Source: an uncultured Acidobacteriota bacterium (lineage in GTDB: Bacteria; Acidobacteriota; Terriglobia; UBA7540). From it: a stretch of DNA of 64,000 nt. The DNA lies in the NCBI GenBank assembly GCA_963804995.1, contig CAWDSK010000006.1:128001-192000 (forward strand), given 5' to 3'. Below, piece after piece: positions 38,084-56,865 of this stretch. Numbering within the stretch: position 1 is the stretch's first letter; every line of letters starts with the position of its first letter. A program made the position numbers and the translations under genes. The notes below the pieces were generated by a model. It had not been told where the DNA came from and searched no databases. It saw only the letters and a program-made list of their open reading frames with translations.

Positions 38084-39505
38084 TTAAAGCAATACCGCGG
38101 CTGCAAAGGTCCGGCCGGCGTTCATCAAAAAGTGCTCGACGATGGGGCCCACGGCGAAGGCGGGCAGGAAGGTCAGCGCGGCCACAATGATGATGGTGCC
38201 GACCAGGAGCAGTGAAAACTGTAGATCGTGGGTCGGCATCGTCCCACTGGTTACGGGCGTCTTGGGCTTGAGGGCCAGGCTGCCGGCGATGGCCAGCACC
38301 GGGATGATGATCAAGAACCGCCCGGCCAGCATCGCCAATCCCAGCGTGAGGTTGTACCAGGGAGTATTGGCATTGAGCCCGGCAAAGGAACTTCCGTTGT
38401 TCCCCGTGGCGCTCGCATAGGCATATAAGATTTCGCTGAATCCGTGGGGACCGCGGTTGGCAAGGTTGGCGGTGGGCGCTCCGGGTGGGTTCAGGTAGGA
38501 GGCAGGGCGAAATCCCATCAGGGTGCTCGCAGCCGCCATGAGCAGGATACAGGCGGAGCAGGCGATCATGGCCAGCATCACCATCTTCATCTCCCGCGCC
38601 ATGATTTTCTTTCCCAGGTATTCAGGGGTTCGGCCCACCATCAGCCCACCCACAAATACGGCCACCAGGGTGATGAGCAGCATTCCGTACAAACCCGACC
38701 CCGGCCCGCCGAAGATCACCTCACCACACTTCATGTTGAACATCTGAACCAGCCCGCTGAGCGGCGTGTAGCTGTCGTGCATGCTGTTGACCGCTCCCGA
38801 ACTCGTGGCGGTACTCACCACGGAAAAGAGGGCTGAACCCGCAATCCCAAAGCGCACTTCCTTGCCTTCAAAATTGCCGCCGGGATTCGTGGCGCTCGCG
38901 GATGGGTCCACACCCTGCTGCCCCAGGAGCGGATTGCCACGTTGCTCCATCGAGTAGGCAATTATGCTTCCGGCCGCCAGCAGGCTGAACATTACGAAAA
39001 ACAGCGCCCAGCCCTGACGGCGGTCGCGCACCATTCGGCCGAACGTGTGAGTCAGCCCGGCGGGAATCGCCAGGATCAGGAGCATCTCCAAAAAGTTCGT
39101 AAAGGGAGTGGGATTCTCAAAGGGGTGGGCGGAACTGGCATTGAAGAACCCCCCTCCATCGGAACTGAGGAGCTTGATCGACTCCTGGGAAGCGACCGGG
39201 CCCCCCGGAATCATCTGCGCACCGCCCTCCAGCGTTTCGAAAGTCTGCCAGCGTTGCAGAATGTAGAAGAGGAGGAAATTCCAGAGGCCAAAGGCCAGGC
39301 ACGCGGCGGCATACTGGGTCCAGCGCTGCTCTCTTTCTCTTATGCCCGCCAGCTTGTATATAAGATTTTCGAGGGGCAATAATAAGGGCGAGAGCCAAGT
39401 GCGCCGGCCTTCAAAAACCCGCGCCATGTAAGCGCCCAGGGGCTTGGTGATGACCAGTAGCAACAGGAAGAAGAAGAGCAACTGTGCCAGGCCAATCTGA
39501 TTCAT
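38084..39505 (-). CDS. kdpA: Second KdpA paralogue with an in-frame deletion of ~130 aa
   Basis: [48 protein letters not shown]; 473 aa versus 604 aa for the upstream copy. Confidence 0.85.
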   Translation of the reverse strand: MNQIGLAQLLFFFLLLLVITKPLGAYMARVFEGRRTWLSPLLLPLENLIYKLAGIREREQRWTQYAAACLAFGLWNFLLFYILQRWQTFETLEGGAQMIPGGPVASQESIKLLSSDGGGFFNASSAHPFENPTPFTNFLEMLLILAIPAGLTHTFGRMVRDRRQGWALFFVMFSLLAAGSIIAYSMEQRGNPLLGQQGVDPSASATNPGGNFEGKEVRFGIAGSALFSVVSTATSSGAVNSMHDSYTPLSGLVQMFNMKCGEVIFGGPGSGLYGMLLITLVAVFVGGLMVGRTPEYLGKKIMAREMKMVMLAMIACSACILLMAAASTLMGFRPASYLNPPGAPTANLANRGPHGFSEILYAYASATGNNGSSFAGLNANTPWYNLTLGLAMLAGRFLIIIPVLAIAGSLALKPKTPVTSGTMPTHDLQFSLLLVGTIIIVAALTFLPAFAVGPIVEHFLMNAGRTFAAAVLL

Positions 39506-39686
39506 GGCGGGTTGTCTCACCTCAAGGCTTGCTAAAGAGAACGAAAAATTGGGCCTGCCGCTAGCACAAATTCTTCGTGACAGGTTTGGAAGGGCAGGGC
39601 TAAACAGGTTGCGGAAAAAGCCGTTGGAGCTGCCATTATCAACACCACCCCTTCATCTCCTGCTCAGCACCAACCCTTTATCTTGT

Positions 39687-40048
39687 CAGCACCACCCCGG
39701 CGCTCGGCGCGCCACCCCTCCTGATTTAGGAGGGGTGGCGCCGGAGGTGACGGGGTGGTTATTCGAATCCGCCGGGCGGCGTGAGGCAACCATCAGCACC
39801 ACCCCGGCGCTCGGCGCGCCACCCCTCCTCATCTGAGGAGGGGAGTGTTTTTCAGAACTCCCCTCCTGATTTAGGAGGGGTGGCGCCGGAGGTGACGGGG
39901 TGGTTATTCGATCCGCCGGGCGGCGTGAGGCAACCATCAGCACCACCCCGGCGCTCGGCGCGCCACCCCTCCTCATCTGAGGAGGGGAGTTCTGGAACAA
40001 CTTCCCTCCTGATTTCCGTGGCGCCTTGGGTGACGGGGTGGTTATTCG
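39687..40048. repeat. Three tandem copies of a ~110-145-bp palindromic repeat
   Basis: cagcaccaccccggcgctcggcgcgccacccctcct at 39687, 39794 and 39938. Confidence 0.9.
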
Positions 40049-40083
40049 CATTGCGGTGTTTTCAGCAGCCTGTAGAGTCCCGC

Positions 40084-43433: not shown

Positions 43434-45542
43434 TTAGGCCAGGTGCAACAGGCCGAGCAGCCGGTCAATCAGCCAAATGCCCGGAAAAGGCGCGATGATG
43501 CCGCCGACACCGTAGATCAACAAGTTCTTGCGTAACATTTGGGCGGCACCTTGGGGCCGATACTTAACACCCCGCAGGGCCAACGGGACCAGCGCAATGA
43601 TAATCAGCGCGTTGAAGATAACCGCCGCCAGGACCGCACTTTGCGGCGTATGCAAATGCATAATATTCAACGCATTGAGTGCCGGATAAGTTGCCATGAA
43701 CATGGCCGGAATGATGGCGAAGTATTTCGCCACATCGTTGGCGATGGAAAACGTGGTCAGGGCGCCGCGCGTGATCAGGAGCTGCTTGCCGATGGCCACA
43801 ATTTCGATCAGCTTGGTGGGATTGCTGTCCAGATCCACCATGTTCCCGGCTTCCTTGGCGGCCATGGTGCCCGTGTTCATGGCCACGCCGACATCGGCCT
43901 GCGCGAGGGCAGGCGCATCATTGGTGCCGTCGCCGGTCATGGCCACCAGGCGGCCTTGCGCCTGCTCTTTCTTGATGTACTCCATCTTGTCTTTGGGTGT
44001 GGCCTGGGCGAGGAAATCATCCACTCCCGCTTCATTCGCAATCGCCGCGGCGGTCAGCGGATTGTCTCCGGTGATCATGACAGAGCGGATTCCCATGGTC
44101 CGCAATTGACCAAGACGGTCACGCATGCCGCCTTTGACGATATCCTTGAGGTGCACGATCCCCAGCAATTGCCCCCCGTCCGCCACCGCCAGGGGTGTGC
44201 CTCCCATGCGGGAGATGCGATCCGAAATCTCGCTGAAGTCCGGCGGAACCTTGCCGCCTTTTTCGATCACGAACTGCACGATGGCGTCGGTGGCTCCCTT
44301 GCGCAGATGGCGGCCATTCATATCAACGCCGCTCATGCGGGTGTACGCGGAGAACGGAATGAAGTGCGCCTCGTGTTCGGCTACCTCACGCCCGCGGAGG
44401 TTGTAGGCTTGCTTGGCGAGCACCACGATCGACCGGCCCTCGGGAGTTTCATCGGCCAGGCTGGCGAGTTGGGCGGCGTCCGCCAACTCGGCTCCGGTCA
44501 CGCCCTGGGCGGGCAGGAACTCAACGGCCTGCCGATTGCCCAGCGTGATAGTGCCGGTCTTATCGAGGAGCAGCGTGTTGACATCACCCGAGGCCTCTAC
44601 CGCCTTGCCGCTCATGGCCAGCACGTTGTGCTGCATGACGCGATCCATGCCCGCGATGCCGATGGCGGAAAGCAAGCCCCCAATCGTGGTGGGGATCAGG
44701 CACACCAGCAGCGAAACCAGCACGGCGACACTGGGTATCTCTCCACTGCCTGCGGAGGACACGGCGTAGGCGGAAAAGGGTTGCAAGGTTACGACGGCCA
44801 GCAGGAAGATCAGTGTCAGGCCGGCAATCAGAATATTGAGGGCGATCTCGTTGGGAGTCTTCTGGCGTTCCGCGCCTTCGACCAACGCAATCATGCGATC
44901 CAAGAACGTTTCGCCCGGGTTGGAGGTGATCCGAACTCTGATTTGGTCAGAAAGGATCCTTGTCCCGCCTGTGACCGCACTGCGATCCCCACCCGATTCG
45001 CGAATTACCGGAGCACTTTCACCGGTGATGACGGACTCATCCACCGTTCCTATTCCTTCGATGACCTCGCCATCGCCGGGAATGATGTCGCCCGCTGTGC
45101 AGATCACGATGTCTCCGGCCCGAAGCTGGGAAGCTGGAACCATCTCCGTTTCCTGACCTCGCGTGATGCGCCGCGCCAGCGAATCCGTTTTGGTCTTGCG
45201 CAGAGTGTCGGCCTGCGCCTTGCCACGCGCCTCGGCCATGGCCTCCGCAAAATTGGCGAAAAGCACCGTGAACCATAACCACAAGGCAATCTGCAAAGAG
45301 AAACCCACCCCCGGAGCACGGAGGAGGAGGTCGCGAACCAGGAACACCGAGGTCAGCGCGGCTCCCACCTCCACCACAAACATGACGGGATTTTTGGCGA
45401 GGGTGGCAGGACTCAACTTCCGGAACGAATCTTGCACCGCACGCTTCACGATGGGTGGATCGAAGAGCGGACGGGCCCGCCCCAGTTTCTTGGGGAGGAG
45501 CGTCGCCTCTTCCGTGGGGGGAAGCGCTACAAGTGTGGCCAT
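43434..45542 (-). CDS. kdpB: K+-transporting ATPase subunit B
   Basis: [42 protein letters not shown]. Confidence 0.98.
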
Positions 45543-45546
45543 CAGA

Positions 45547-47361
45547 TCAACTCCAAATTGGGAAAGACAACATTGAGAAAAGCTTTCCTTGCATCATCAG
45601 GAAATGCTCGACGATCGGGCCCAGGGACAAAGCCGGGAAGTAAGTCAAAGCGCCGACGATGATCACGGTGCCAATCAGCAAGCCGACAAACAGCGCGCCG
45701 TGCGTCGGCAACGTGCCGCTGGTCGTGGGAATTTTCTTCTTGGCTGCCAGGCTGCCGGCTACCGCCAGCATCGGAATAATGAACAGGAAGCGGCCGATCA
45801 GCGTGGCCAATCCGAGGCTGAAGTTGTACCAGGGAGTGTTTCCATTGAGCCCGGCGAAAGCGCTTCCGTTATTTCCGTTGGTGCTGGTATAGGCGTAGAG
45901 GATCTCGCTGAATCCATGCGGGCCATTGTTGTTGAGGTTGGCCGTGGCAGCCCCCGGCGGGTTCAGATAGCCATTCTGCTTGAATTTGGCGACGGAACTA
46001 ATCCCGGTAAAAACCAGGATGTTTGCGGCCATCAGGATCAGCGCCAGCATGGCCATCTTCACTTCTTTTTGTTCGATCTTTTTGCCAATGTATTCCGGAG
46101 TGCGGCCCACCATCAGTCCGGCAATGAATACGGCCAGGATGGCAAAGAGCAACATGCCCTTGATGCCCGCGCCCACACCTCCAAAAACCACTTCCCCAAG
46201 CTGGATGTTGAAAAGGGGCACCAGGCCGCCGAGCGGGGTGAAGCTGTCGTGCATGCCGTTCACCGCGCCGCAACTTGCGTCTGTGGTGATCACGGCAAAG
46301 AGCGCGGTGGAGGCGATGCCGAAGCGAACCTCCTTGCCTTCCATGTTCCCGCCTGGCTGCACATTACTGGCCTTGGTCGCGAGGCCAAACTTCGCCAGGT
46401 TCGGATTGCCTGCCTGTTCTGCCGGGTAACAAACCAAGACCCCCGCCAGGAACAGGACACTCATGGCCGCAAACAACGCCCAGCCCTGACGCCTGTCTTC
46501 GACCATCCTGCCGAAGGTGTAAGTGAGGCCGGCGGGGATGGCGAAGATCATGAACATCTGGAGGAAGTTGGTGAGGGGCGTGGGGTTTTCAAAGGGATGG
46601 GAGGAATTGGTATTGAAAAAACCTCCGCCGTTTGTCCCCACCATCTTGATGGCCTCTTGGGAAGCGACCGGGCCCTGCGCGATGGTCTGCGTGGCGCCTT
46701 CCAAAGTATTCGCCGTGGTGAAGGGTTTAAAATTCTGAATCACGCCCTGCGAGCAAAGGAAGAGCGCACCGAGTAGGGAGAGGGGTAGAAAAATGTAAAG
46801 CGTCGCCCGCACCAGATCCACCCAGAAGTTGCCGATGCTATTGCTCTGCTTGCGCGCAAAGCCCCGAATCAGGGCGACGGAAACGGCCACGCCCGCGGCG
46901 GCGGAGACAAAGTTCTGAACTGTGAGGACGGTCATCTGCACGAAATAGCTGAACGTCGTCTCACCGCCATAGTTTTGCCAGTTGGTGTTGGTCACGAAAC
47001 TGGCGGCCGTATTGAAGGCAAGATCCGCGGTCACTTGAGTTGCCCCGGCAGGTGCTTGCCCCGTCCCGAAATGCATGAGATTCAGGGGTAGGAATCCCTG
47101 GAGCCTCTGGATCACGTACGCGAAGATAAAACTCATCAGGCTGAAGGCTATCAGCGACGCGGCATACTGGCTCCAGCGCTGGTCGGAAGTCTCGCGGATG
47201 CGGCATAGGCGGTAAGTCAGCTTCTCCAGAGGGCGCAGTACGGGGTGAAGAAAGGTGCGCTCACCCGCGAAGAGCCGGGTCATAAAGACGCCCAAAGGCT
47301 TCGTCACCAGCAGGATCAACAGAAAGTAAACAGCGATATTCAAAACGCCGATCGAGGTCAT
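45547..47361 (-). CDS. kdpA: K+-transporting ATPase subunit A
   Basis: [37 protein letters not shown]. Confidence 0.98.
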
Positions 47362-47370
47362 GGTCTCCTC

Positions 47371-47454
47371 TTAAAACCGCTCGGGCCGCAGCAAGGCATA
47401 TACGAGATAACCAAACAGGAGTAGTGCCGCAACGCCGGCAATTATGTAATCCAT
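47371..47454 (-). CDS. kdpF: K+-transporting ATPase subunit F
   Basis: MDYIIAGVAALLLFGYLVYALLRPERF with the YL..ALL.PERF signature; GAGGGAG RBS; below the ORF-track cutoff. Confidence 0.93.
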   Translation of the reverse strand: MDYIIAGVAALLLFGYLVYALLRPERF

Positions 47455-47575
47455 CGAGCCGTCTCCCTCTAGCGACTGGGTATAATCCTCAACCCGGTCT
47501 CGAAACTCGAAAATCGAAATTCGAGGTGGAACTCACGATCTTCGATTTTCGAATATCGATTTTCGCCCTTCTTCT

Positions 47576-47659
47576 TTAGAGCCGGTCACAGGCGCGGGTA
47601 AAGATCCAGCATCCGGCGAAGAACGCAATGCCAATCAGGATGTATGCCAAGTCCAACAT
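47576..47659 (-). CDS. 27-aa kdp-associated membrane peptide
   Basis: MLDLAYILIGIAFFAGCWIFTRACDRL; GAGGTG RBS overlapping the upstream stop. Confidence 0.75.
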   Translation of the reverse strand: MLDLAYILIGIAFFAGCWIFTRACDRL

Positions 47660-47666
47660 GGCAGTA

Positions 47667-48149
47667 TCACCTCAATTCCGCAAAAATCACTTGATGCCCA
47701 TCCCTTTCGAGCGTTCCCGCCAGCCTCTGCTCAGGGGTAGGCCACCAACGCTTCCGGCCCCCCATGATCACGAGGGATCCAGACTTTAGGATAAGCCGCA
47801 GTGTCCGCTGTTTGTCGCGACACAGATAGATGTTCGCGGCAATCTCCATCGGTACCCGGCTTGCCAAAGTGCGGATTTGCCCTTCCAGGAATTCTATCGA
47901 TACTGCCGGCTTGCTCAGGGGAAGAGTATAAGGCACTTCATAGGGCATGAGTAAGCGTAACCGCGCCTCCAGACGCTTGGCCAGTCGCTCGGCCATTTCG
48001 AGGGCTGCCAGTGTACCGGTGGCATCTGTAAAGACCACGGAGACTTCCAACCTTTGGTTGTCGTCACTTTCCGGCTGATCAGGTTCGTAATATCTCAGCC
48101 TGGAAAGCGGATGAACGACCACACACTCAAAACCTGAAGTGATTCTCAT
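47667..48149 (-). CDS. Degenerate USP-like protein heading the kdp operon
   Basis: LEVSVVFTD...TLAAL..A..LA...L.LL...VPY.LPL...LVIMGGRKRWW. Confidence 0.65.
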   Translation of the reverse strand: MRITSGFECVVVHPLSRLRYYEPDQPESDDNQRLEVSVVFTDATGTLAALEMAERLAKRLEARLRLLMPYEVPYTLPLSKPAVSIEFLEGQIRTLASRVPMEIAANIYLCRDKQRTLRLILKSGSLVIMGGRKRWWPTPEQRLAGTLERDGHQVIFAELR

Positions 48150-48182
48150 CGAGGTCCCAGAACACAATGGTGCTCGGAGACC

Positions 48183-48199
48183 CATAAGGAAGGCATAAA
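48183..48199 (-). promoter_or_regulatory. Putative KdpE-like tandem site
   Basis: Minus strand TTTATG-ccttc-CTTATG directly upstream of the kdp operon. Confidence 0.5.
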
Positions 48200-48495
48200 G
48201 AGTTGGTCAGGATTTCATTAGCCAGCGCTGGGCTGACCTCCGCCGGTGTGCAGCTCTTCCTGCGCCAGTTGAACGATTTGTCGTGACGAAAAACCCGGCA
48301 CGAGGCAGGCGTCGAGCGCCGCTACGATTCACGCATTTCCGTTTCGGAAAACGCCCCGGAACCGGCACGCCTCATCCCGATTGACGATGTGCAGTTGCCG
48401 CTGAGGTATCGGGCGTGAGAGAATCCTGCAGTCACGGCTGCACTGACGGTAATGGTTACCCGCTGTCTGAAATTCCATTACGTCGATTGTTGTTT

Positions 48496-50348
48496 ATGCA
48501 CAACCACACTCACGATCATGGCACGGGGCTTAGTCAGGAGGCGCTCGCGACCCTTCAGCGGGGGCTCACCGAACTCTTGCGGATGACGGAAGGCATGGTG
48601 TTCCGGCCTGTTGCCTCTGAGCGCTATCCGCTACCTTTGGCCCTGGCGGTTTACGGAGAGGTCCCTGACCCCGAGCGTGTTCGAAGCGAAGTGCGTGCAG
48701 GCATCGAGTCCGAGCCCCTCCGCGTGCTTGAGGCAAGCCTGGCGCTGCTGGAGCTTTACGCCTGCAACCAGCCTGGCGTATGCGCAGCGGTGCCCGACGA
48801 CGACGCGTTCCTTACGGAGGTCTTCGCGAGCAAGCGCAGGAATGGCTGGATCGTTCTGCTCGGCGATGCGAACCAGGTTGAAACACAGACTGCGGTAAAC
48901 GCCCGCTGGCAGTTTAAATTCCTCGAAGCGGGGGAGACGGTGTACCAGCCTTTACGTCTTGCTGAATGTGTTGGCGCGTTACGCCTTCGTATACGGACGG
49001 ATACCGCCCGGCGACACCCATCTGCTCGGACACTTCATCGAAGACATTACCTCGGGATTGGTCGTGGGGCGCGGAAAACTGAATGACCTGGAGTTGACCC
49101 TATCTCTGGCCGCCATGCGGATCGGTGTTCCGGCCATCACGCCTCAAGGCTATCCCTTCCAGCTCGGACGCCACGTCCGTGCCGGCACTTTGCCTGAAAT
49201 CGTCGATGCCGTGGCGAGTTTCCCCAGCGTCCGGCGCCTACTGGATCATGCCGACATCCCGCCTTTACCCGACTACTTGAACCCCGGGGAAGCCCAGCCG
49301 CGCTTCCAGCTCGGCAAAACGTGGGGAGACACGCCCGAGAGCTTTTATCTTCTGCGCAAAGGGCGGGTGGAAGTCCCCGGCGTCAGCGTGATGGGAACAC
49401 CTTCTGGAGCGATGGGGATTCTGCTGACGGTTGACGCCGAGCCCCTGGACGCTTTCGACCGCCGGTATATCGAGTCTCGCGCGGCGCGCGTCTTTTCAAA
49501 GAATGCGCGGGGTTTCGGCGAGACATTCCTCCGGGAGGCTGGTGTTGGGACTGGCGCGCGACTTCGATCTGCCCCCGGAGCGGATTGGCGAGTCCTTGAT
49601 CGCGGCAGTCCGCAATGAGTTTCCGCGAATCGTCAAATTGCGTGCGGAAGTCATCTTCGACCGCGAGCGCCTGAACGACCTGGAGGTCGAAGTCTCGGCC
49701 GAAAGGACCGAGCGGAAGCGGGAAATCGCTGCGGCAACCGAGGAGAGCGTTCCCGAGTTCGTCACCTGCGTAGGTTGCTCGGCTTTTGCGCCCGACCATG
49801 TGTGCATTCTCACGCCCGAGCGGCCCCCGCAGTGCGGCCGCGCCTACGAGTTCATCAAAACCGGGGCACTCTATGGGTACGATGACATGACCAACATCCA
49901 TCACCGTGAGTTGCATTTCGGCGTTAATTCTTTTGGCACCTGCTCGAAGGGCGAGTTGCTGGATCCCACCGCCGGGGAGTGGTCAGGCGTCAACCAGGCG
50001 GCAGCGCGTCTGACGGGAGGAAGGATCACGCGCGTCCAACTGCATTCCCTCGACGAAGCGCCACACACCGGCTGCGGTTGCTTTCAGTTGATCCTGTTCA
50101 AGACGGACCTGCCCAAGCCTGGAATCGGTATCATGGAGCGTGGCTACAAGGGACTTGCACCGGACGGCCGCACTTGGCGCGACCTGCATTATGCCTTGGG
50201 CGGGAAGCAGACCCCTGGCCTCGCCGGCGCGGCGTGGGGATACCTCCAATCGCCGAAGTTTCTGGCTGCCCACGGTGGGAGGGAAAGCGTTGTGTGGGCC
50301 AGTCCTAAGGTTGCAGCCTTGATGCCACCTGCGGACGGACGAGTGTAA
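48496..50348 (+). CDS. Divergent acetyl-CoA synthase (AcsB/CdhC)-like protein, frameshifts near 48930-48945 and 49500
   Basis: FVTCVGCSAFAPDHVCILTPERPPQCG, HSLDEAPHTGCGCF, GGKQTPG, SPKFL.AHGG...VVW parallel the AcsB C-terminal domain; three consecutive ORFs join into ~615 aa. Confidence 0.8.
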
Positions 50349-50386
50349 ACGGGTGGCACAGCGCGGCGGAGCCACAACCAACGGAT

Positions 50387-51701
50387 TTAAGCAAGTGTAG
50401 CGCGGCCCCCCGTCGTTGTGATCTGCCGGGTAGGATTGACATAAACCCAAGCCAGGACCCCCACCAACACGATCAAGCTCCCAGCATAAAGTCCCCAGGA
50501 CCAACCGACGAACGAGGCAATATAAGGTGTAAGAATAGGAGAAATAAGACCGCCGATGTTCGCTCCCATGTTAAGAATGCCGCAAGCGGCGCCCAGATGT
50601 TCACCCCCCACATGGATGGTCGTGGCCCAAAACGGCGCTTCCGAACACGCTACGGACCCGAAGGCCATCGTCATGAGGACGAAGGCGGCGAGGGTTCCGG
50701 TGGCGTTTGTGCCCAAATAGAGCAGGAAGGCGCTCAGGCTCATACTAACAATAGGGACATAGCGCCGGCCGACCTTGGCTCCGTAGAGCTTGGAGAGGAA
50801 GTCAGAAATCCACCCGCCGAGTGGCGTCATGAGCGTAAACGCCAGGAATAGAATGGTGGTGTAAATCGCGGTCTGGCTCGACCCTATGTGGCGAATCTGG
50901 CCGAAGTAGTAGTAGATCCAATAGAAGAATATGTATTCGAAGTAGCCCATAGTGCCATAGGCCAGGGTAAGCAGCATCAGATTTCGGTCAGTCAACAACC
51001 TGCGCCACGGGGTAGAGGCTGCGTGTTTGGCTTGAATCGGGGCACTATCCTCGAGCGAGGAGGTGTCCCTGCTCACCAATCGCGGGGTGTTCCTCCGGAT
51101 GATCACGCACATACCAGTACCACAGAACCGCAAGAGCCGCCGTGGTAACTCCGGCCAGGCAGAAGGACATCCGCCAGCCCCGATGCATAACCAACCAGGA
51201 AAACAAGAGTGGAGAACACGCACTCCCTAGTCCCGTGCCTGCCACAATCAGTCCTTGAACGATGGCGTGCCTCCGCAATGGAAACCAGTTGGATGTCATC
51301 TTGGCGCAAGACGGGTACAGCGGAGCCGTCATCACGCCCAACCCGAGGCGGATGACGAGAAACGAAGGGACAATGCCGAGATAGGAGCCCAGGCCCGGCC
51401 GCCCGCCCAGAGCCGTCATGCCCGTGAAAAAAGCCGCTCCCAGCCCTATCACGGTGAGGACCGAGCGGGGGCCAAGACGGTCTGCCAGCCGGCCCCCTGG
51501 AACCATGAGCAGAAAATAGCTGAAGACGAACGCGGAATAAATCGTTCCCATCGCGGTTTCCGATATAGCGAACTCTTTCATGATGTGTGGGCCGGCAATG
51601 GACATGATCGTCCGATCGAAATAGCTCATCACGCTGAAAGCCACCATTAAGATCACGATCTTCGTTTGGACGCGTTCCGCACTGCGGGTTGAGAAAGGCA
51701 T
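50387..51701 (-). CDS. MFS transporter (anion:cation symporter-like), frameshift near 51050-51070
   Basis: SYFDRTIMSIA, GRLADRLGPR, WFP, GWR, RDHP; second half GGWISD, GILNMGANIGG. Confidence 0.85.
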
Positions 51702-52197
51702 TCAAGCGCTCCCCTATGCCGGCTATCATTCAATCGAATCCATTCATTGCGTACTGACGGGGTCGAATTAACTGGTCAGCACCTGACGAAGACGAATGGT
51801 GACTTGGAACTGCCTACAATGCACCACTTTCAAAATCGAAATCGCCAGGAATTATGCGTGGAAAACCTCAGCCTCTGCAGATCGCGGCCTGGATTGTATC
51901 TTCCTGCGCGTACCAGATTAATCCAGTGTTCTCTTTCGGGAAACCCCACCGGCAAGATTTTCTTTCCCACGTGCCGTTGGGATCTGTCCACCTCTCAAGA
52001 GCAGGCCATTGGCTTTCTGGCACCAAAGAGAAACCACTGTATCTTTCGGGATGGCGATTATAGGATTCGTACGATGATTCCCCTCCTAGATAGGGAGGTG
52101 GCCAGGGGGCGGTTGATCGGCGCGATTTGTCACTCACCCACCCAACCCCCTAGCTTACCTGAGGCGAAGAGTTATTCTCACAGCAGGAGGAAGTTAG

Positions 52198-53856
52198 ATG
52201 GCGCGGAGACGAGATTTGCTAAAGGCTCTTTCAGCGGGTGCAATGAATGCGGTGCTACCCGGTTTCCGCCCGGTGCCGCGAGCCGCCAAACCGGCGCCAG
52301 GTCAGCCGAATATTCTTTTCATCATTTCTGACCAGCACCGTGCGGGGCTTTCCAGGCGTTCAGAGTATCCCCTGGACACGAGCCCGACGCTCGATGCGTT
52401 AGCCGAACATGGAGTGAGTTTTGACAAGGCATACACCACGTGTCCAGTCTGTGCGCCAAGCCGCATTAGCCTGCTGACCGGGCGCTGGCCCGAGGCTCAC
52501 CGGCAGCGTCAGAACACTGCGCACCTCGAAGCTTTCTACGAGAAGGATCTTTTTGATGTGGTGAAGGCAGCGGGTTACAAGACGGGCCTCGCCGGCAAGA
52601 ATCACACCTACATAACGCCCGCTAAGCTGGATTTCTGGCGGGAGTATGGCCACCAGGGAGGCTGGGAGTCACCCACCGCGCCGCGCGAGGTGGTGCAATT
52701 TGACGCATGGATGCGACGCCTGAACTCCGGCGTGTCTTATGTGCCGACACCCTTCCCCGTAAGTACTCAATCACCCTACCGCATCGTTTCCGATGCCATC
52801 GAATTCATGGATAGATTTGGCAACCAGCCTTTTGCTCTGGAGGTCAGCTTTCCCGAACCTCACAATCCCGAGCAAGTGCCCAGGCCCTATTGGGATATGT
52901 ACCCTCCGGAAAGTGTGCCGGACCGTTGCGCCAGCCCCGAGGTATTGAAATACAGGGGGTATAAGGAGCAATGGTTGTATGGAATGGAAAATGACACCCA
53001 TCCCATCTACGAAAAAAATTGGCGGCGTTATAAGTCGAATTATTTGGGAATGCTCCGGTTGCTGGATGACCAGTTAAAACGCCTCGTCGATTACATGAAG
53101 CAGCAAAATCTGCTGGAGAAGACCATCATCGTGTACCTTGCCGATCACGGTGACTACTTGATGGACTATGGTCTGGGCCGCAAGGGAGCTGGATTGCCGG
53201 AGTGTCTGACCAGGATTCCCATGGTGTGGTCAGGATGGGGGATCGAAGGGGGCCATCCCCACCATTCGGCCTGTGTGTCCAATGCCGATGTGATGCCGAC
53301 ACTGTGTGAAGCCATCGGTGCGGAGATTCCCCAGGGTGTGCAGGGACGCAGTCTCTGGCCGCTTCTTCAAGGTAAAGGATATCCCGAGGAGGAGTTCCGC
53401 AGCATTTACGCGGGGGTGGGATTTGGCGGGTTATACTACGATGAGTCTTACGCGATGCCTTATCGACTTGCACAATACCCCCCCAAGGGAGAGAGCGGCG
53501 AGGGGCGGCCCACCCCGCTCTGGAATATCGATGAATTGAACCCCGTCACCCAAAGCGGCACCCAGAAGATGGTCCGCATGGGTGATTGGAAGCTGATTTA
53601 TGACATGATGGGCTATGGCCAGCTTTACAATCTGGCATCCGATCCGTGTGAGTTGAAGAATCTGTTCTCAGACCCCTCCGTAGCAGGAGAACAAATGCGG
53701 ATGGTAGAAGAACTGTTGATGTGGACAATCCGAAGCCAGGACACCTTGCCCACGGACGAGCCCCTAAAAGGCTGGCAGAGCACCCGCTGGTCAAAGCAGC
53801 ACAACTGGTACGCGCCTTATCGCCATGGGAAGGCCCCAGGGCCCTTTATTCCGTAA
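52198..53856 (+). CDS. Sulfatase (Tat-like signal)
   Basis: PNILFIISDQH, CAPSRISLLTG (CxPxR), GKNH, PHNP, ADHGD, LYNL..DP.E..NL. Confidence 0.93.
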   Translation: MARRRDLLKALSAGAMNAVLPGFRPVPRAAKPAPGQPNILFIISDQHRAGLSRRSEYPLDTSPTLDALAEHGVSFDKAYTTCPVCAPSRISLLTGRWPEAHRQRQNTAHLEAFYEKDLFDVVKAAGYKTGLAGKNHTYITPAKLDFWREYGHQGGWESPTAPREVVQFDAWMRRLNSGVSYVPTPFPVSTQSPYRIVSDAIEFMDRFGNQPFALEVSFPEPHNPEQVPRPYWDMYPPESVPDRCASPEVLKYRGYKEQWLYGMENDTHPIYEKNWRRYKSNYLGMLRLLDDQLKRLVDYMKQQNLLEKTIIVYLADHGDYLMDYGLGRKGAGLPECLTRIPMVWSGWGIEGGHPHHSACVSNADVMPTLCEAIGAEIPQGVQGRSLWPLLQGKGYPEEEFRSIYAGVGFGGLYYDESYAMPYRLAQYPPKGESGEGRPTPLWNIDELNPVTQSGTQKMVRMGDWKLIYDMMGYGQLYNLASDPCELKNLFSDPSVAGEQMRMVEELLMWTIRSQDTLPTDEPLKGWQSTRWSKQHNWYAPYRHGKAPGPFIP

Positions 53857-54105
53857 GCTGGACTCCGGTAGAAAGCCATCCGTCCCATTCTCATGGTTAG
53901 CGTCCGGCGAGCCCATCTCTTCCCCACGTAGCCCACTGCCTGAAACTCCACTTGCTTCCTGCGCCCAGGCCGGGCAAAAGGAGGTGCACAGTGTGATAAA
54001 ATGAAATCCTTCCTGAATAGAACCAGGGCATGAACTCAATTCAGATCCTTACGGGCAAGATGCCGAAATACTTTTCGCTTAGATTCCAAGGGATACGCCT
54101 AAGCA

Positions 54106-55616
54106 ATGTCTACAACGAATACGCGAGTGACAAAGCAACATGATCGGCAAAAACGCCAGCGGTCCGCGGTCACGCGAAGAGCTTTTCTCCGCGCGGCTTC
54201 CCTGTCGCCAGCGTTTTTCGCACTTGCATCCCGGCGGGCGAGCGCGGTGAACACTGAAACTCCCAAACCCACCGACATCCGCATTGATGAAGTCGCCATC
54301 GACTACCAGGATTTTCCCTACCGTACGCCCTACAAATTCGGCGGCAGGGAGATTGACCGGGTGACCGTCCTGAACGTCTGGTGTTCCGTGCACACCCTAA
54401 GCGGCCGCGAAGCGCGCGGCTTCGGGTCGATGCCGCTGGTCAGCGCCTGGGCATTCCCGTCTAAGAAAATGTCCTCCGACTCAACCCTGGGGGCCATGAA
54501 AGTCCTGGCTGAGAGCATTCGAGGCATCACTGAAGACTTCGACGACCTTGCTCATCCCATCGACATCAACGTGGCGCTCGAACCCGAATACGTGCGAGCC
54601 GCGCAGGAGGTATCCGAAGACCTGCACCTCGCGGAACCGATTCCCAAGCTCTGTACTTTGGTAACTGCGAGCGCATTCGACGCCGCTTTGCATGACGCTT
54701 TCGGAAAAGCCAACGGGGTTAGCAGCTATCACGCTTATGGCCGCGATTTCATGACCTACGACCTCGGGCACTACCTTGGCCCCGACTTCAACGGTGAATA
54801 CCCTGACCAGTATTTGTTGCGGGACCCCACGCCCCGCTTGGCGATATACCACTCCGTGGGCGAGTCAGACCCCATCGCAGAGTCGGACGTCAAGGAGCGC
54901 ATTCACGACGGCATGCCCATGAGCCTGCATGGGTGGATTGACTACAATGGCCTGACGCACATCAAGATCAAATTAGCGGGTAATAATCTGGAATGGGATC
55001 TCAGCGGATGCTGAGCATCGACCGGACCACCCGCGAGGTAGAGACGGCGCGCGGCGTGAAGGATTGGGTTTACTCGCTCGACTTCAATGAGCAGTGCAGC
55101 AACGTCGCATACCTGTTGGATTTTTTACACCGCCTGAAGGAGAAGTCGCCTATCGCTTACGATAAAATCCAGTTCCTCGAACAGCCGACCAAACGCGACC
55201 TCGCAAACGATCGGGGAAATGTGATGTTCGAGGTTGCGAAGCTTTGGCCGGTCGTAATCGATGAATCACTGACAGGGCTGGATATGCTGATGCTGGCGCG
55301 TCAAATGGGCTACTCGGGAGCGGCGCTAAAGACCTGCAAGGGGCATACAGAGTCCATACTTCTTGCCGCGGTTTGTCAAAAATACAAGATGTTCATGTGC
55401 GTCATGGATTTCACTTGCCCCGGCGCTTCCCTGGTGCACTCCGCAGGACTGGCAGCCCACCTGCCCACGATTACCGCCCTTGAATCCAACGCTCGGCACT
55501 TCGTGCCCGCCGGCAATCGTGGCTGGGAGAGCAAATTCCCGGGAATCTTCGTCATCAAAGACGGCACGATGAGCACAGGGGACCTGACCAAACCCGGCTT
55601 GGGTGTTGTTGAGTAA
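54106..55616 (+). CDS. Enolase-superfamily (mandelate racemase-like) protein, frameshift near 55005
   Basis: TRRAFL signal, KIKL, LDFNE, LEQP, IDES, ALKTCKG, KPGLG. Confidence 0.8.
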
Positions 55617-55617
55617 C

Positions 55618-55824
55618 CTAGTGTGGTGTCCCGTGTTAGAGTTGACAAGGGGTAGAACCCCCTCACCCGTCTGGCCTCGGCTGATGAGAACGCCTCGGCC
55701 AGCCACCCTCTCCCCCAAAGGGGCGAGGGCAAGAAAATTAACTCTCCCCTCGCCCCTTTGGGGGAGAGGGGCTGGGGGGTGAGGGGGACAGCCTTGTCAA
55801 ATATTAACCGGGACACCACACGAG
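55618..55824. mobile_element. MITE-like element with ~33-bp imperfect terminal inverted repeats
   Basis: CTAGTGTGGTGTCCCGTGTTAGAGTTGACAAGG ... CCTTGTCAAATATTAACCGGGACACCACACGAG enclosing a CCCTCTCCC-type repeat. Confidence 0.7.
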
Positions 55825-55836
55825 GAGGAGAATCCC

Positions 55837-56865
55837 ATTTCCACAATCCTCACTACCACCGTCGGGTCGTACCCCATACCGGATTGGCTGACCGCCGCAC
55901 CCAGCCGGCAGTCTCGTCTTGATGCCACGCGCGTGGTCTTCGACATCCAGCGGCAGGCGGGCATCGACCTCCCCACGGATGGCGAACTCTATCGGTTCGA
56001 TATCAACCATCCCGACACCAACGGCATGATCGAATACTTTCTGCGGCCTATGAGCGGCATCAGCACCGAGCTTGGGCGCGCCGATTGGGACGCCTATTAC
56101 CGGTTGCGGGGGGTGGGTTTTCGCAACATCCCCGCAGGCATTGTCACCGGTGCGATTAGTGGAGGCAAACTTAACCTACTGGCCGATTGTTCGACCACTG
56201 CCGAGGTCGCGGGCGGTCCGTTCAAATTTACCGTGACCAGCCCCTACATGCTTTCCCGGCTGCTCTTGGACAATCACTATCATGATTTCGATGCCTTGAC
56301 CATGGCCGTCGCCAAAGCTCTGAGCGAACAAGTTGCGGGCCTTCCTTGTGCCTGCCTGCAAGTTGATGAAGCCATCCTGGTCGAGAATCCAGAGGACGTT
56401 GCCCTGGCGGCGAAAGCGATCAACCTTCTGCTCGACAGTGTCACCTGCCAGCGGGCAGTGCACCTCTGCTTCGGCAACTATGGCGGCCAGACCATTCGCA
56501 AGGGACATTGGGCCTCGCTGATAGAATTCTTCAACGCCCTGCACGCCGACCACCTGGTCTTGGAAATTGCTCACCGCCCGAGCGAAGACCTCGAGGCACT
56601 GAAGGACGTTGCGCCGCGAATCAAGCTTGGCATCGGGGTCGTGGATGTGAAGATTAATCGCGTCGAAACAGCCGATGAGATTGCCCAGCGGATTGAGGCG
56701 GCGGAAAAGATCCTGGGCCCCGGGCGGGTAGGCTGGGTCCATCCCGATTGCGGTTTCTGGATGCTGAAGCGTTCAGTGGCCGATCGCAAAATCGCCGCGC
56801 TGGTTAAAGGGCGCGACCGCTATCTGGGCAAGGGCTCACACACCGCCGCGGGTAAGTCAAATTAG
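55837..56865 (+). CDS. Cobalamin-independent methionine synthase II family (single-barrel MetE-like) protein
   Basis: TTTVGSYP N-terminus upstream of the track start, TDGE..R, QVDE, HLCFGN, PDCG. Confidence 0.85.
   Translation: MSTILTTTVGSYPIPDWLTAAPSRQSRLDATRVVFDIQRQAGIDLPTDGELYRFDINHPDTNGMIEYFLRPMSGISTELGRADWDAYYRLRGVGFRNIPAGIVTGAISGGKLNLLADCSTTAEVAGGPFKFTVTSPYMLSRLLLDNHYHDFDALTMAVAKALSEQVAGLPCACLQVDEAILVENPEDVALAAKAINLLLDSVTCQRAVHLCFGNYGGQTIRKGHWASLIEFFNALHADHLVLEIAHRPSEDLEALKDVAPRIKLGIGVVDVKINRVETADEIAQRIEAAEKILGPGRVGWVHPDCGFWMLKRSVADRKIAALVKGRDRYLGKGSHTAAGKSN

Follow-up and report, generated by a model that had tools for sequence, protein, structure and literature searches.

To our knowledge, the one role described for cluster A is that of the active site in acetyl-CoA synthase (ACS). 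The closest described systems are the bacterial enzyme AcsB (structures 1OAO, 1MJG and 6X5K of M. thermoacetica, 1RU3 and 7ZKJ of C. hydrogenoformans, and 6YTT and 9G7I of C. autoethanogenum; families NF040764 and PF19436) and the archaeal protein CdhC, the beta subunit in a complex named acetyl-CoA decarbonylase/synthase (ACDS; M. thermophila 9C0S and 9C0T; families TIGR00316 and NF003379). Two further systems have no bound carbon monoxide dehydrogenase (CODH): the CODH-less ACS of Dehalococcoides, which cleaves acetyl-CoA and thereby releases carbon monoxide (CO), and, as a monomer, the ACS of C. hydrogenoformans (1RU3, 7NYP). In both, the corrinoid iron-sulfur protein (CoFeSP) is retained along with the methyltransferase and the CoA site. 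Here, we analyse a stretch of 64,000 nucleotides from an uncultured Acidobacteriota bacterium (contig CAWDSK010000006.1 of assembly GCA_963804995.1; hereafter the window), which encodes a homologue of ACS at positions 48496-50348 of the plus strand. This orphan gene lies outside any acs operon and very probably represents a stand-alone, ACS-derived family that keeps the ligands of cluster A. The family is real and under selection and apparently undescribed; no description of such a family was found in literature searches, in which the coverage of most subscription journals was wanting.

Metal site and fold

In intact relatives, the protein consists of 616 residues (616 codons), which form an A1-like domain (residues ~11-250), an A2-like domain (~255-415) and the A3 cluster domain (~416-610). 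These relatives have the same His-rich start as the window copy, MHNHTHDH, the first codon of which lies at 48496, in agreement with the start and the length of about 615 residues that a first, sequence-only reading of the window had given; the window copy itself is spread over three frames that overlap. With the last open reading frame (ORF) piece as the query, 176 longer proteins were found, and the 120 matches listed are 58-92% identical to it. For the family alignment, 82 members were used, which have a mean identity of 55% and share 68 invariant columns spread across all three domains.

The sequence-only reading had pointed to two cysteine motifs arranged as in cluster A, and the alignments agree with it. 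The first motif, C-V-G-C-x6-H-V-C-x9-C (49767-49835, +), contains C424, C427, H434, C436 and C446 together with the gating phenylalanine F430 and corresponds to the Fe4S4 and proximal nickel site. The second, C526-G527-C528 (50073-50081, +), is part of T-G-C-G-C-F and corresponds to the distal nickel site; its middle residue is Gly in 73/82 and Ser in 9/82 members. Individual cysteines are assigned to iron or nickel as in canonical ACS. C424, C427, H434, C436, C526 and C528 are found in 82/82 family members and C446 in 81/82, and in alignments with ACS proteins of solved structure (phmmer E 7e-35 to 8e-34) the motif cysteines fall on those of cluster A. The ligand set CxxC-x6-HxC-x9-C plus CGC of ACS is present in the orphan protein. 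The histidine of the HxC motif, which in canonical ACS is a hydrogen-bond partner and not a metal ligand, is conserved in the family as well. A Ni-Ni-[4Fe-4S] cluster would be expected to occupy the site predicted from these motifs.

In structural models, the window protein is represented by the intact relative P0004, which is 79-88% identical to the window pieces (tblastn). The AlphaFold model of P0004 (pLDDT 91.3, pTM 0.87) has the three-domain (or A2-A3) fold of ACS. Its likeness to ACS extends along the entire chain (Foldseek E 3e-38; VIA Z 33.8, 582 aligned residues, root-mean-square deviation (rmsd) 9.1), with an rmsd of 2.7-3.0 for A1 alone and 3.4 for A2-A3. As expected, domain A1 of the model resembles the fold of Ni-CODH and hybrid cluster protein (HCP; Z 10-21). 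A search of the ESM Atlas returned canonical ACS clusters only, at 0.87. The curated ACS and CdhC models, which had been suggested as a check, were missed by a wide margin: P0004 reaches 180.5 against a cut-off of 800 for NF040764, 175.5 against 809 for NF007078, 174.8 against 372 for NF003379 and 153 against 356 for TIGR00316, whereas a canonical ACS control scores 1028 against 800. Among Pfam families, PF19436 is matched (129.7 bits for the last ORF piece) and PF03598 is not.

The orphan protein thus shares with AcsB the full-length fold, the cluster cysteines, the HxC histidine and the gating phenylalanine, at ~20-22% identity in the structural alignment. However, it is ~110 residues shorter, and its N-terminal part is remodelled, with no match to the CODH_A_N or CdhC families of Pfam. 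The best match of the C-terminal piece is CdhC (E 7e-35), with which the protein has the LHS, GExSG and GKQ motifs in common and superimposes over A2-A3 with an rmsd of 3.4. CdhC, in contrast, has no domain A1, retains the CoA residues and acts as part of the ACDS complex, and the orphan protein scores less than half of its cut-off.

Loss of the acetyl-CoA site

In acetyl-CoA-bound ACS, Trp405 holds the adenine and a Lys/Arg patch the diphosphate, Arg383 lies beside the acetyl group, and His386 is the likely thiol base (10.1101/2024.08.05.606187). The numbering of the CoA site is that of C. autoethanogenum, which matches chain 6YTT in our alignment, and the residue register was obtained in three ways, hhalign among them. 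The family was compared with 34 bacterial and archaeal ACS sequences; P0224 was dropped from this canonical set for want of the motif. Arg383 is found in 34/34 canonical sequences and 15/82 family members, His386 in 32/34 and 0/82, His397 in 34/34 and 0/82, Arg401 in 33/34 and 0/82, and Arg407 in 33/34 and 10/82. Trp occupies the Trp405 column in 27/34 canonical sequences, whereas V, I, L or A is found there in 69/82 family members, and the E-G-E-x-x-R motif of canonical ACS is gone from the family, too. In the window copy, the degenerate site (49475-49498, +) has S327 and A330 in place of Arg383 and His386. The conserved acetyl-CoA-binding residues of A2 (Arg383, His386, Trp405 and the basic patch) are therefore absent from the family as a set, and because of this loss the protein is probably not an acetyl-CoA synthase. 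That the family does not use CoA at all seems likely to us.

The CO pocket of ACS involves Ile146, Phe229 and Phe512 (PMC9782325). In 82/82 family members, the Phe512 column holds Phe (F430), the Phe229 column Tyr (Y166), a residue also found there in 5/34 canonical sequences, and the Ile146 column (M. thermoacetica numbering) Phe (F110). The last of these positions belongs to a remodelled gating helix, D102..F110..K113-R114..W118 (48799-48849, +), all named residues of which are found in 82/82 members; the region carries a two-residue deletion, and the Val149 column of the helix is a gap in 82/82 members. Y166 is followed by a family helix, H175-x3-H179-F180-x-E182 (with Y166, 48992-49042, +), the four residues of which are conserved in 82, 82, 82 and 81 of the 82 members and are not conserved in canonical ACS. 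A family insertion, Y459..D462-D463-M-x-N-I-H468-H469-x3-H473..N477-S478 (49872-49931, +), contributes an IHHxxxH motif that is present in 82/82 members, and the N-terminal tail MHNHTHDH (48496-48519, +) is likewise rich in histidines, with at least two His among the first 30 residues in 74/82 members.

Taken together, K113, R114, W118, H175, H179, E182 (81/82), R448 and W560 are new invariant residues of the family. Trp154 and Arg250 of C. hydrogenoformans ACS are in contact (PMC12289521). In the alignment, K113 falls close to the position of Trp154, and the helix from H175 to E182 has its end close to Arg250; the new Lys, Arg, His and Glu residues may make up a single polar patch next to the gating helix. 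As far as can be judged from sequence, what is new about the family compared with AcsB is the loss of the CoA site together with the invariant Lys/Arg/His/Glu residues in domain 1 and a His-rich insertion, predicted to lie beside the cluster.

Distribution and phylogeny

The orphan gene was found at 22 loci in species-representative genomes, the carriers of which are, by title, Acidobacteriota/Terriglobia, Bryobacteraceae, Brocadiia, Phycisphaerae, other Planctomycetota, Anaerolineae and Spirochaetales, and at 119 metagenome loci, 80 of which were kept. Two genome loci, L034 (antisense ORF picked) and L022 (same genome as L021), are left out of the genome searches, and L034 is also left out of the neighbour survey. 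The family is rare and patchy: the gene is present in 8/29 genomes of the genus and in 1/401 sampled genomes of its own phylum, namely the source genome, and canonical-strength ACS matches are found in 8/401. Likewise, in a 401-genome sample of the phylum of carrier G079, only G079 matches (E 1e-55). Genus member G021 has two matches on separate short contigs (L004 and L009), which are possibly two copies, and a plasmid collection yielded one match with 34% identity.

When 1.84 billion representatives were searched with a profile, a second tier of relatives of 560-710 aa emerged, including proteins of Chloroflexota and Coriobacteriia. In all 13 second-tier relatives tested, H175, W118, F180 and W560 are present, and His386 is found in none of them (0/13); the His insertion, compared with this tier, is limited to the 82-member family. 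In a tree of A2-A3 (35 rows, fragments left out of this and the following tree), 13 orphan and 22 canonical sequences are split at 100/100, and 15 bacterial AcsB group together at 100/100; this tree has no root, and its orphan branch is long. A grouping of the orphans with ten crown bacterial AcsB is rejected by the approximately unbiased test (p 0.003), with the caveat that this group was picked after the first tree, and a quick tree of 72 rows, also unrooted, agrees with the split (99). In the unrooted tree, the orphans join close to CdhC-like sequences, where the label 'archaeal-like' derives from the source names of cluster members and not from the taxa of individual rows. The orphans therefore do not nest within canonical AcsB, an outcome that would have spoken against a separate family; they appear as a conserved family inside a wider orphan superfamily, set apart from all canonical AcsB and CdhC tested.

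A 2026 phylogeny of ACS distinguishes AcsB, CdhC, prismane-CdhC and two prismane-less clades, which are treated together with CODH gene clusters, and leaves the root open (PMC13370988, accessible text). Going by the descriptions in that text, none of these clades fits the orphan family. The family is a candidate outgroup for the unrooted ACS phylogeny.

Genomic neighbourhood and partner genes

The neighbours of the orphan gene in the window are kdpA/B/C, a major facilitator superfamily (MFS) transporter gene, a sulfatase gene, an enolase-superfamily gene and a rhamnosidase gene, as the sequence-only reading had it with its kdp and sugar/sulfate catabolic genes. Two of them, the MFS transporter gene (50387-51701, -) and the enolase-superfamily gene (54106-55616, +), each appear split into two overlapping frames. 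Across 101 loci, neither a conserved neighbour in general nor conserved acs neighbours in particular were found, and Pfam searches of a subset of flanking ORFs (within ~5 kb at loci in genomes and ~1.8 kb at those in metagenomes) returned unrelated genes. A conserved operon was rejected: with 19 loci, the biggest cluster consists of an antisense frame over the end of the gene, and real neighbours reach 13 and 11 loci of close kin. At one locus, a fusion of a cNMP-binding domain, acetate kinase and phosphate propanoyltransferase is encoded ~3 kb from the orphan gene (L032:4501-6855, -).

The source genome is 92% complete and carries the orphan gene on a 2.17 Mb contig. No matches to the CdhC, CdhD and prismane/CODH (PF03063) families were found in this genome as a whole, and tblastn with the ORFs of seven canonical acs clusters found no CODH, AcsC, AcsD or CooC, the AcsB query hitting the orphan gene only. 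The earlier observation that genes for CODH, CoFeSP, AcsE and CooC are missing from the window thus extends to the whole genome for CODH, AcsC, AcsD and CooC, but not for AcsE: there is no acs operon, but two AcsE-like methyltransferases are encoded on other contigs, along with Fhs, MetF, two corrinoid proteins, RACo and MtaA-type enzymes. Two clusters for corrinoid methyl transfer, L089 (G000:C2:507000-521400) and L091 (G000:C4:44600-50200), contain genes for MtaA/URO-D enzymes, a corrinoid protein, RACo and an AcsE-like protein, and L089 additionally those for MetF, Fhs, DUF1638 and a homocysteine methyltransferase domain. Such a methyl branch without a carbonyl branch is common in the genus.

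Among the 20 other carriers, nine have a canonical acsB, always at another locus, and 11 have the orphan gene only. CdhD scores above the cut-off in 9/20 and a prismane match (CODH or HCP) is present in 12/20, while eight have no prismane or CdhD match at all. A CooC/AcsF query matches 10/21 carriers, and the source genome is without a match. The orphan gene therefore neither replaces a missing acsB nor needs acs genes; in contrast to the CODH-less ACS, about half of its carriers have no CoFeSP. With the tree, the solitary loci, the carriers free of CODH, CoFeSP and canonical acsB, the purifying selection and the lost CoA site, the original proposal of a stand-alone family outside the Wood-Ljungdahl pathway is well supported. 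Members that are annotated as ACS subunit beta can wrongly imply the presence of this pathway.

Canonical acs clusters were observed in carriers titled Acidobacteriota/Terriglobia at L082-L084 (G065:C590, G067:C34 and G070:C6). The L082 cluster comprises CODH, an AcsE-like protein, AcsD, a CooC-like protein, AcsV, AcsC and AcsB beside an iron-sulfur subunit that scores with hydrogenase families. Fusion ORFs of AcsB and the CdhD family are present at L084:7334-11398 (+, 1355 aa) and L088:5913-9599 (-, 1229 aa).

The interrupted reading frame

The two frameshifts noticed by the sequence-only reading are, in nucleotide comparison, two single-base (+1) insertions, and these are the only gaps relative to relatives with 88-92% nucleotide identity. 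The first is one extra base in or adjoining a G run (48931-48943, +), and the second is one extra A inside an A run (49499-49502, +). The window copy has no in-frame stops and keeps 68/68 invariant and 107/110 near-invariant family residues. Its pieces have dN/dS values of 0.15-0.21 against 11 relatives, compared with 0.11-0.34 between pairs of relatives, which indicates purifying selection, and its private changes (22 synonymous and 11 non-synonymous) correspond to an omega of ~0.17, below that of three relatives. Since dN/dS gives no sign of decay, the insertions are either assembly errors or very recent.

We lean towards assembly errors: both insertions lie in or beside short base runs, there is no in-frame stop, the conserved residues are kept, the omega value is low, and the MFS gene, the enolase-superfamily gene and fhs of the same assembly likewise appear split, which indicates that frame errors do occur in it. 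It may be, though we consider this rather less than probable, that the insertions are real and that the window copy alone became a pseudogene very recently, in a family that otherwise functions. At the frame-change background of the genome (6 over the 67.6 kb of 51 compared genes, 0.09 per kb), two changes in 1.85 kb are improbable (P ~0.012); a stop or frame change is also found in 3/101 other loci of the orphan gene, and the gene is dispensable within the genus. Whichever origin the insertions have, the family is functional. The GC level is flat around the gene, with no indication of recent transfer.

Proposed function and competing explanations

We tentatively propose that the orphan protein is a CoA-independent nickel carbonylase, which would combine a corrinoid-bound methyl group with CO and pass the resulting acetyl group on to water or to a small acceptor other than CoA. 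The methyl group would be supplied by a non-CoFeSP, MtxC-type corrinoid protein with a RACo activator, encoded elsewhere in the genome. Free methylcobinamide methylates cluster A with a Keq of 341 (PMC12289521), and CoFeSP is thus not chemically required. Free CO would then be joined to the methyl group on the proximal nickel in the closed state, with A1 still closing over the cluster and F430, Y166 and F110 forming a reshaped, more polar CO pocket, and the resulting acetyl group would be released to water, phosphate or another small anion, an acceptor that the Lys/Arg/His/Glu set might position. Alternatively, the enzyme could run in the reverse direction as a decarbonylase. Because CooC/AcsF is missing, nickel is possibly loaded through the His tail or the His insertion; a His tag has been described to bind the proximal nickel of ACS (PMC12289521), which makes such a role for a natural His tail plausible. 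In its boldest version, the proposal would have a corrinoid methyl group and ambient CO converted to acetate or acetyl-phosphate by an enzyme that loads itself with nickel via its His-rich elements. RACo and Fhs are each found in 19/21 carriers, compared with RACo in 57/301 genomes of the phylum, a comparison in which kin are not independent, and the source genome has NiFe-hydrogenase family matches and thus handles nickel. For the more general statement that the family belongs to a deep-branching cluster A superfamily that is not ACS, the reaction of which would be independent of CoA, CODH and CoFeSP, we see the chances as evenly balanced.

Several points weigh against a carbonylase. The release of acetate would waste the energy of a thioester. 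Within the genus, RACo is not enriched (5/7 carriers vs 16/21 non-carriers), so that kinship and an anaerobic way of life may be all that links it to the orphan gene; at the 101 loci, genes for corrinoid proteins or methyltransferases do not recur consistently as neighbours. A source of CO was not found in the source genome, which has neither a Ni-CODH nor a form I Mo-CODH over the cut-off, and with CooC/AcsF missing in 11/21 carriers, the nickel occupancy is uncertain. Furthermore, canonical A3 residues are also lost, namely W-L-D after C446, Glu after CGCF and the C-terminal His-Pro, which could mean that no corrinoid protein docks, and H175 and H179 are placed near the cluster through the alignment to the Trp154/Arg250 region, so that their position there is a prediction.

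If the proposal of a CoA-independent carbonylase holds true, it would describe a natural second use of the cluster A cofactor, without CoA, CODH, CoFeSP or a nickel insertase, in a monomeric-looking protein. A single protein of 68 kDa would then offer a test of what in ACS is required to bind CO, to become methylated and to release the acetyl group.

It is also conceivable, if doubtful, that the protein is a nickel enzyme with cluster A that acts on another small substrate without methyl-corrinoid, for instance in reductive C-halogen or C-S cleavage or in the detoxification of COS, CS2 or NO. Detoxifying genes are often solitary and patchy, as is the orphan gene with its 8/29 genus genomes. 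The most recurrent neighbour, just downstream in 13/101 loci, encodes a haloacid dehalogenase of type II (TIGR01428, 223.5 bits against a cut-off of 125.4). A reductive role would also fit a PNPOx-like flavin protein encoded up- or downstream in 11/101 loci, in seven of them with a Crp/Fnr regulator; in one kin group (L019, L020, L025, L116, L117, L119 and L123), the genes for the regulator, which has an N-terminal C-x-C..C motif, and the PNPOx-like protein precede the orphan gene. In one Brocadiia locus (L027:46-1906), genes for TetR, an FMN reductase and a flavodoxin lie directly upstream. However, the dehalogenase and PNPOx-like neighbours occur only in a few groups of close kin, and none of them adjoins the gene in the window. 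Moreover, the dehalogenase of a more distant member is ~50% identical to the others where the ACS-like proteins are 67-71% identical, and the aromatic CO-pocket positions are retained.

Another explanation, which we regard as unlikely, does without nickel catalysis: the protein might be a sink or sensor for CO or metal, or Zn, Cu or Fe might occupy the bimetal site and support other chemistry. The lack of a CooC/AcsF match in 11/21 carriers and the several His clusters are in line with this, as are five distant relatives (P0157, P0163, P0171, P0174 and P0176), which are full length, with their Fe-S cysteines in place but one or both CGC cysteines lost, and are possibly nickel-free members. In the 82-member family, an invariant CxC motif and 68 invariant positions over three domains, however, go beyond what a sink would be expected to need, there is no fused signalling domain, and a regulator is not a consistent neighbour.

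Quite improbable, in our view, is that the protein is still an ACS or decarbonylase that binds CoA anew, e.g., through the K113/R114/H175/H179 patch, and serves a minimal pathway or the supply of methyl groups from acetyl-CoA. The full ligand set and the three-domain fold are retained, the source genome has a full methyl branch without a carbonyl branch, and some members are named 'acetyl-CoA decarbonylase/synthase subunit beta' in databases. On the other hand, the acetyl-CoA residues that are near-invariant in the 34 canonical sequences are lost, the scores lie well under the curated cut-offs (180 vs 800 and 153 vs 356), and in 9/20 carriers a canonical acsB is already present along with CODH and CoFeSP. 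An ordinary acsB that lost its operon partners to incomplete assembly of the 92% complete genome is hardly credible and is refuted at the family level, as the gene lies within a 2.17 Mb contig among unrelated genes, eight other carriers also lack prismane and CdhD matches, and the tree splits the orphans from canonical ACS at 100/100.

Other features of the window

An Rfam scan of six orphan loci gave no match at the gathering level, and the promoter scan returned 0 sites. In window positions 44000-56000, Rfam yielded only sub-threshold, miRNA-like hairpin matches and no known riboswitch. Short repeated intergenic elements, which show up in the ORF list as recurring stretches of peptide, and a long hairpin with sub-threshold miRNA-family matches on both strands lie at 39500-40050 and 55697-55778. 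Downstream of kdpABC, a second, shorter kdpA (38084-39520, -; 478 vs 604 aa) carries an apparent internal deletion.

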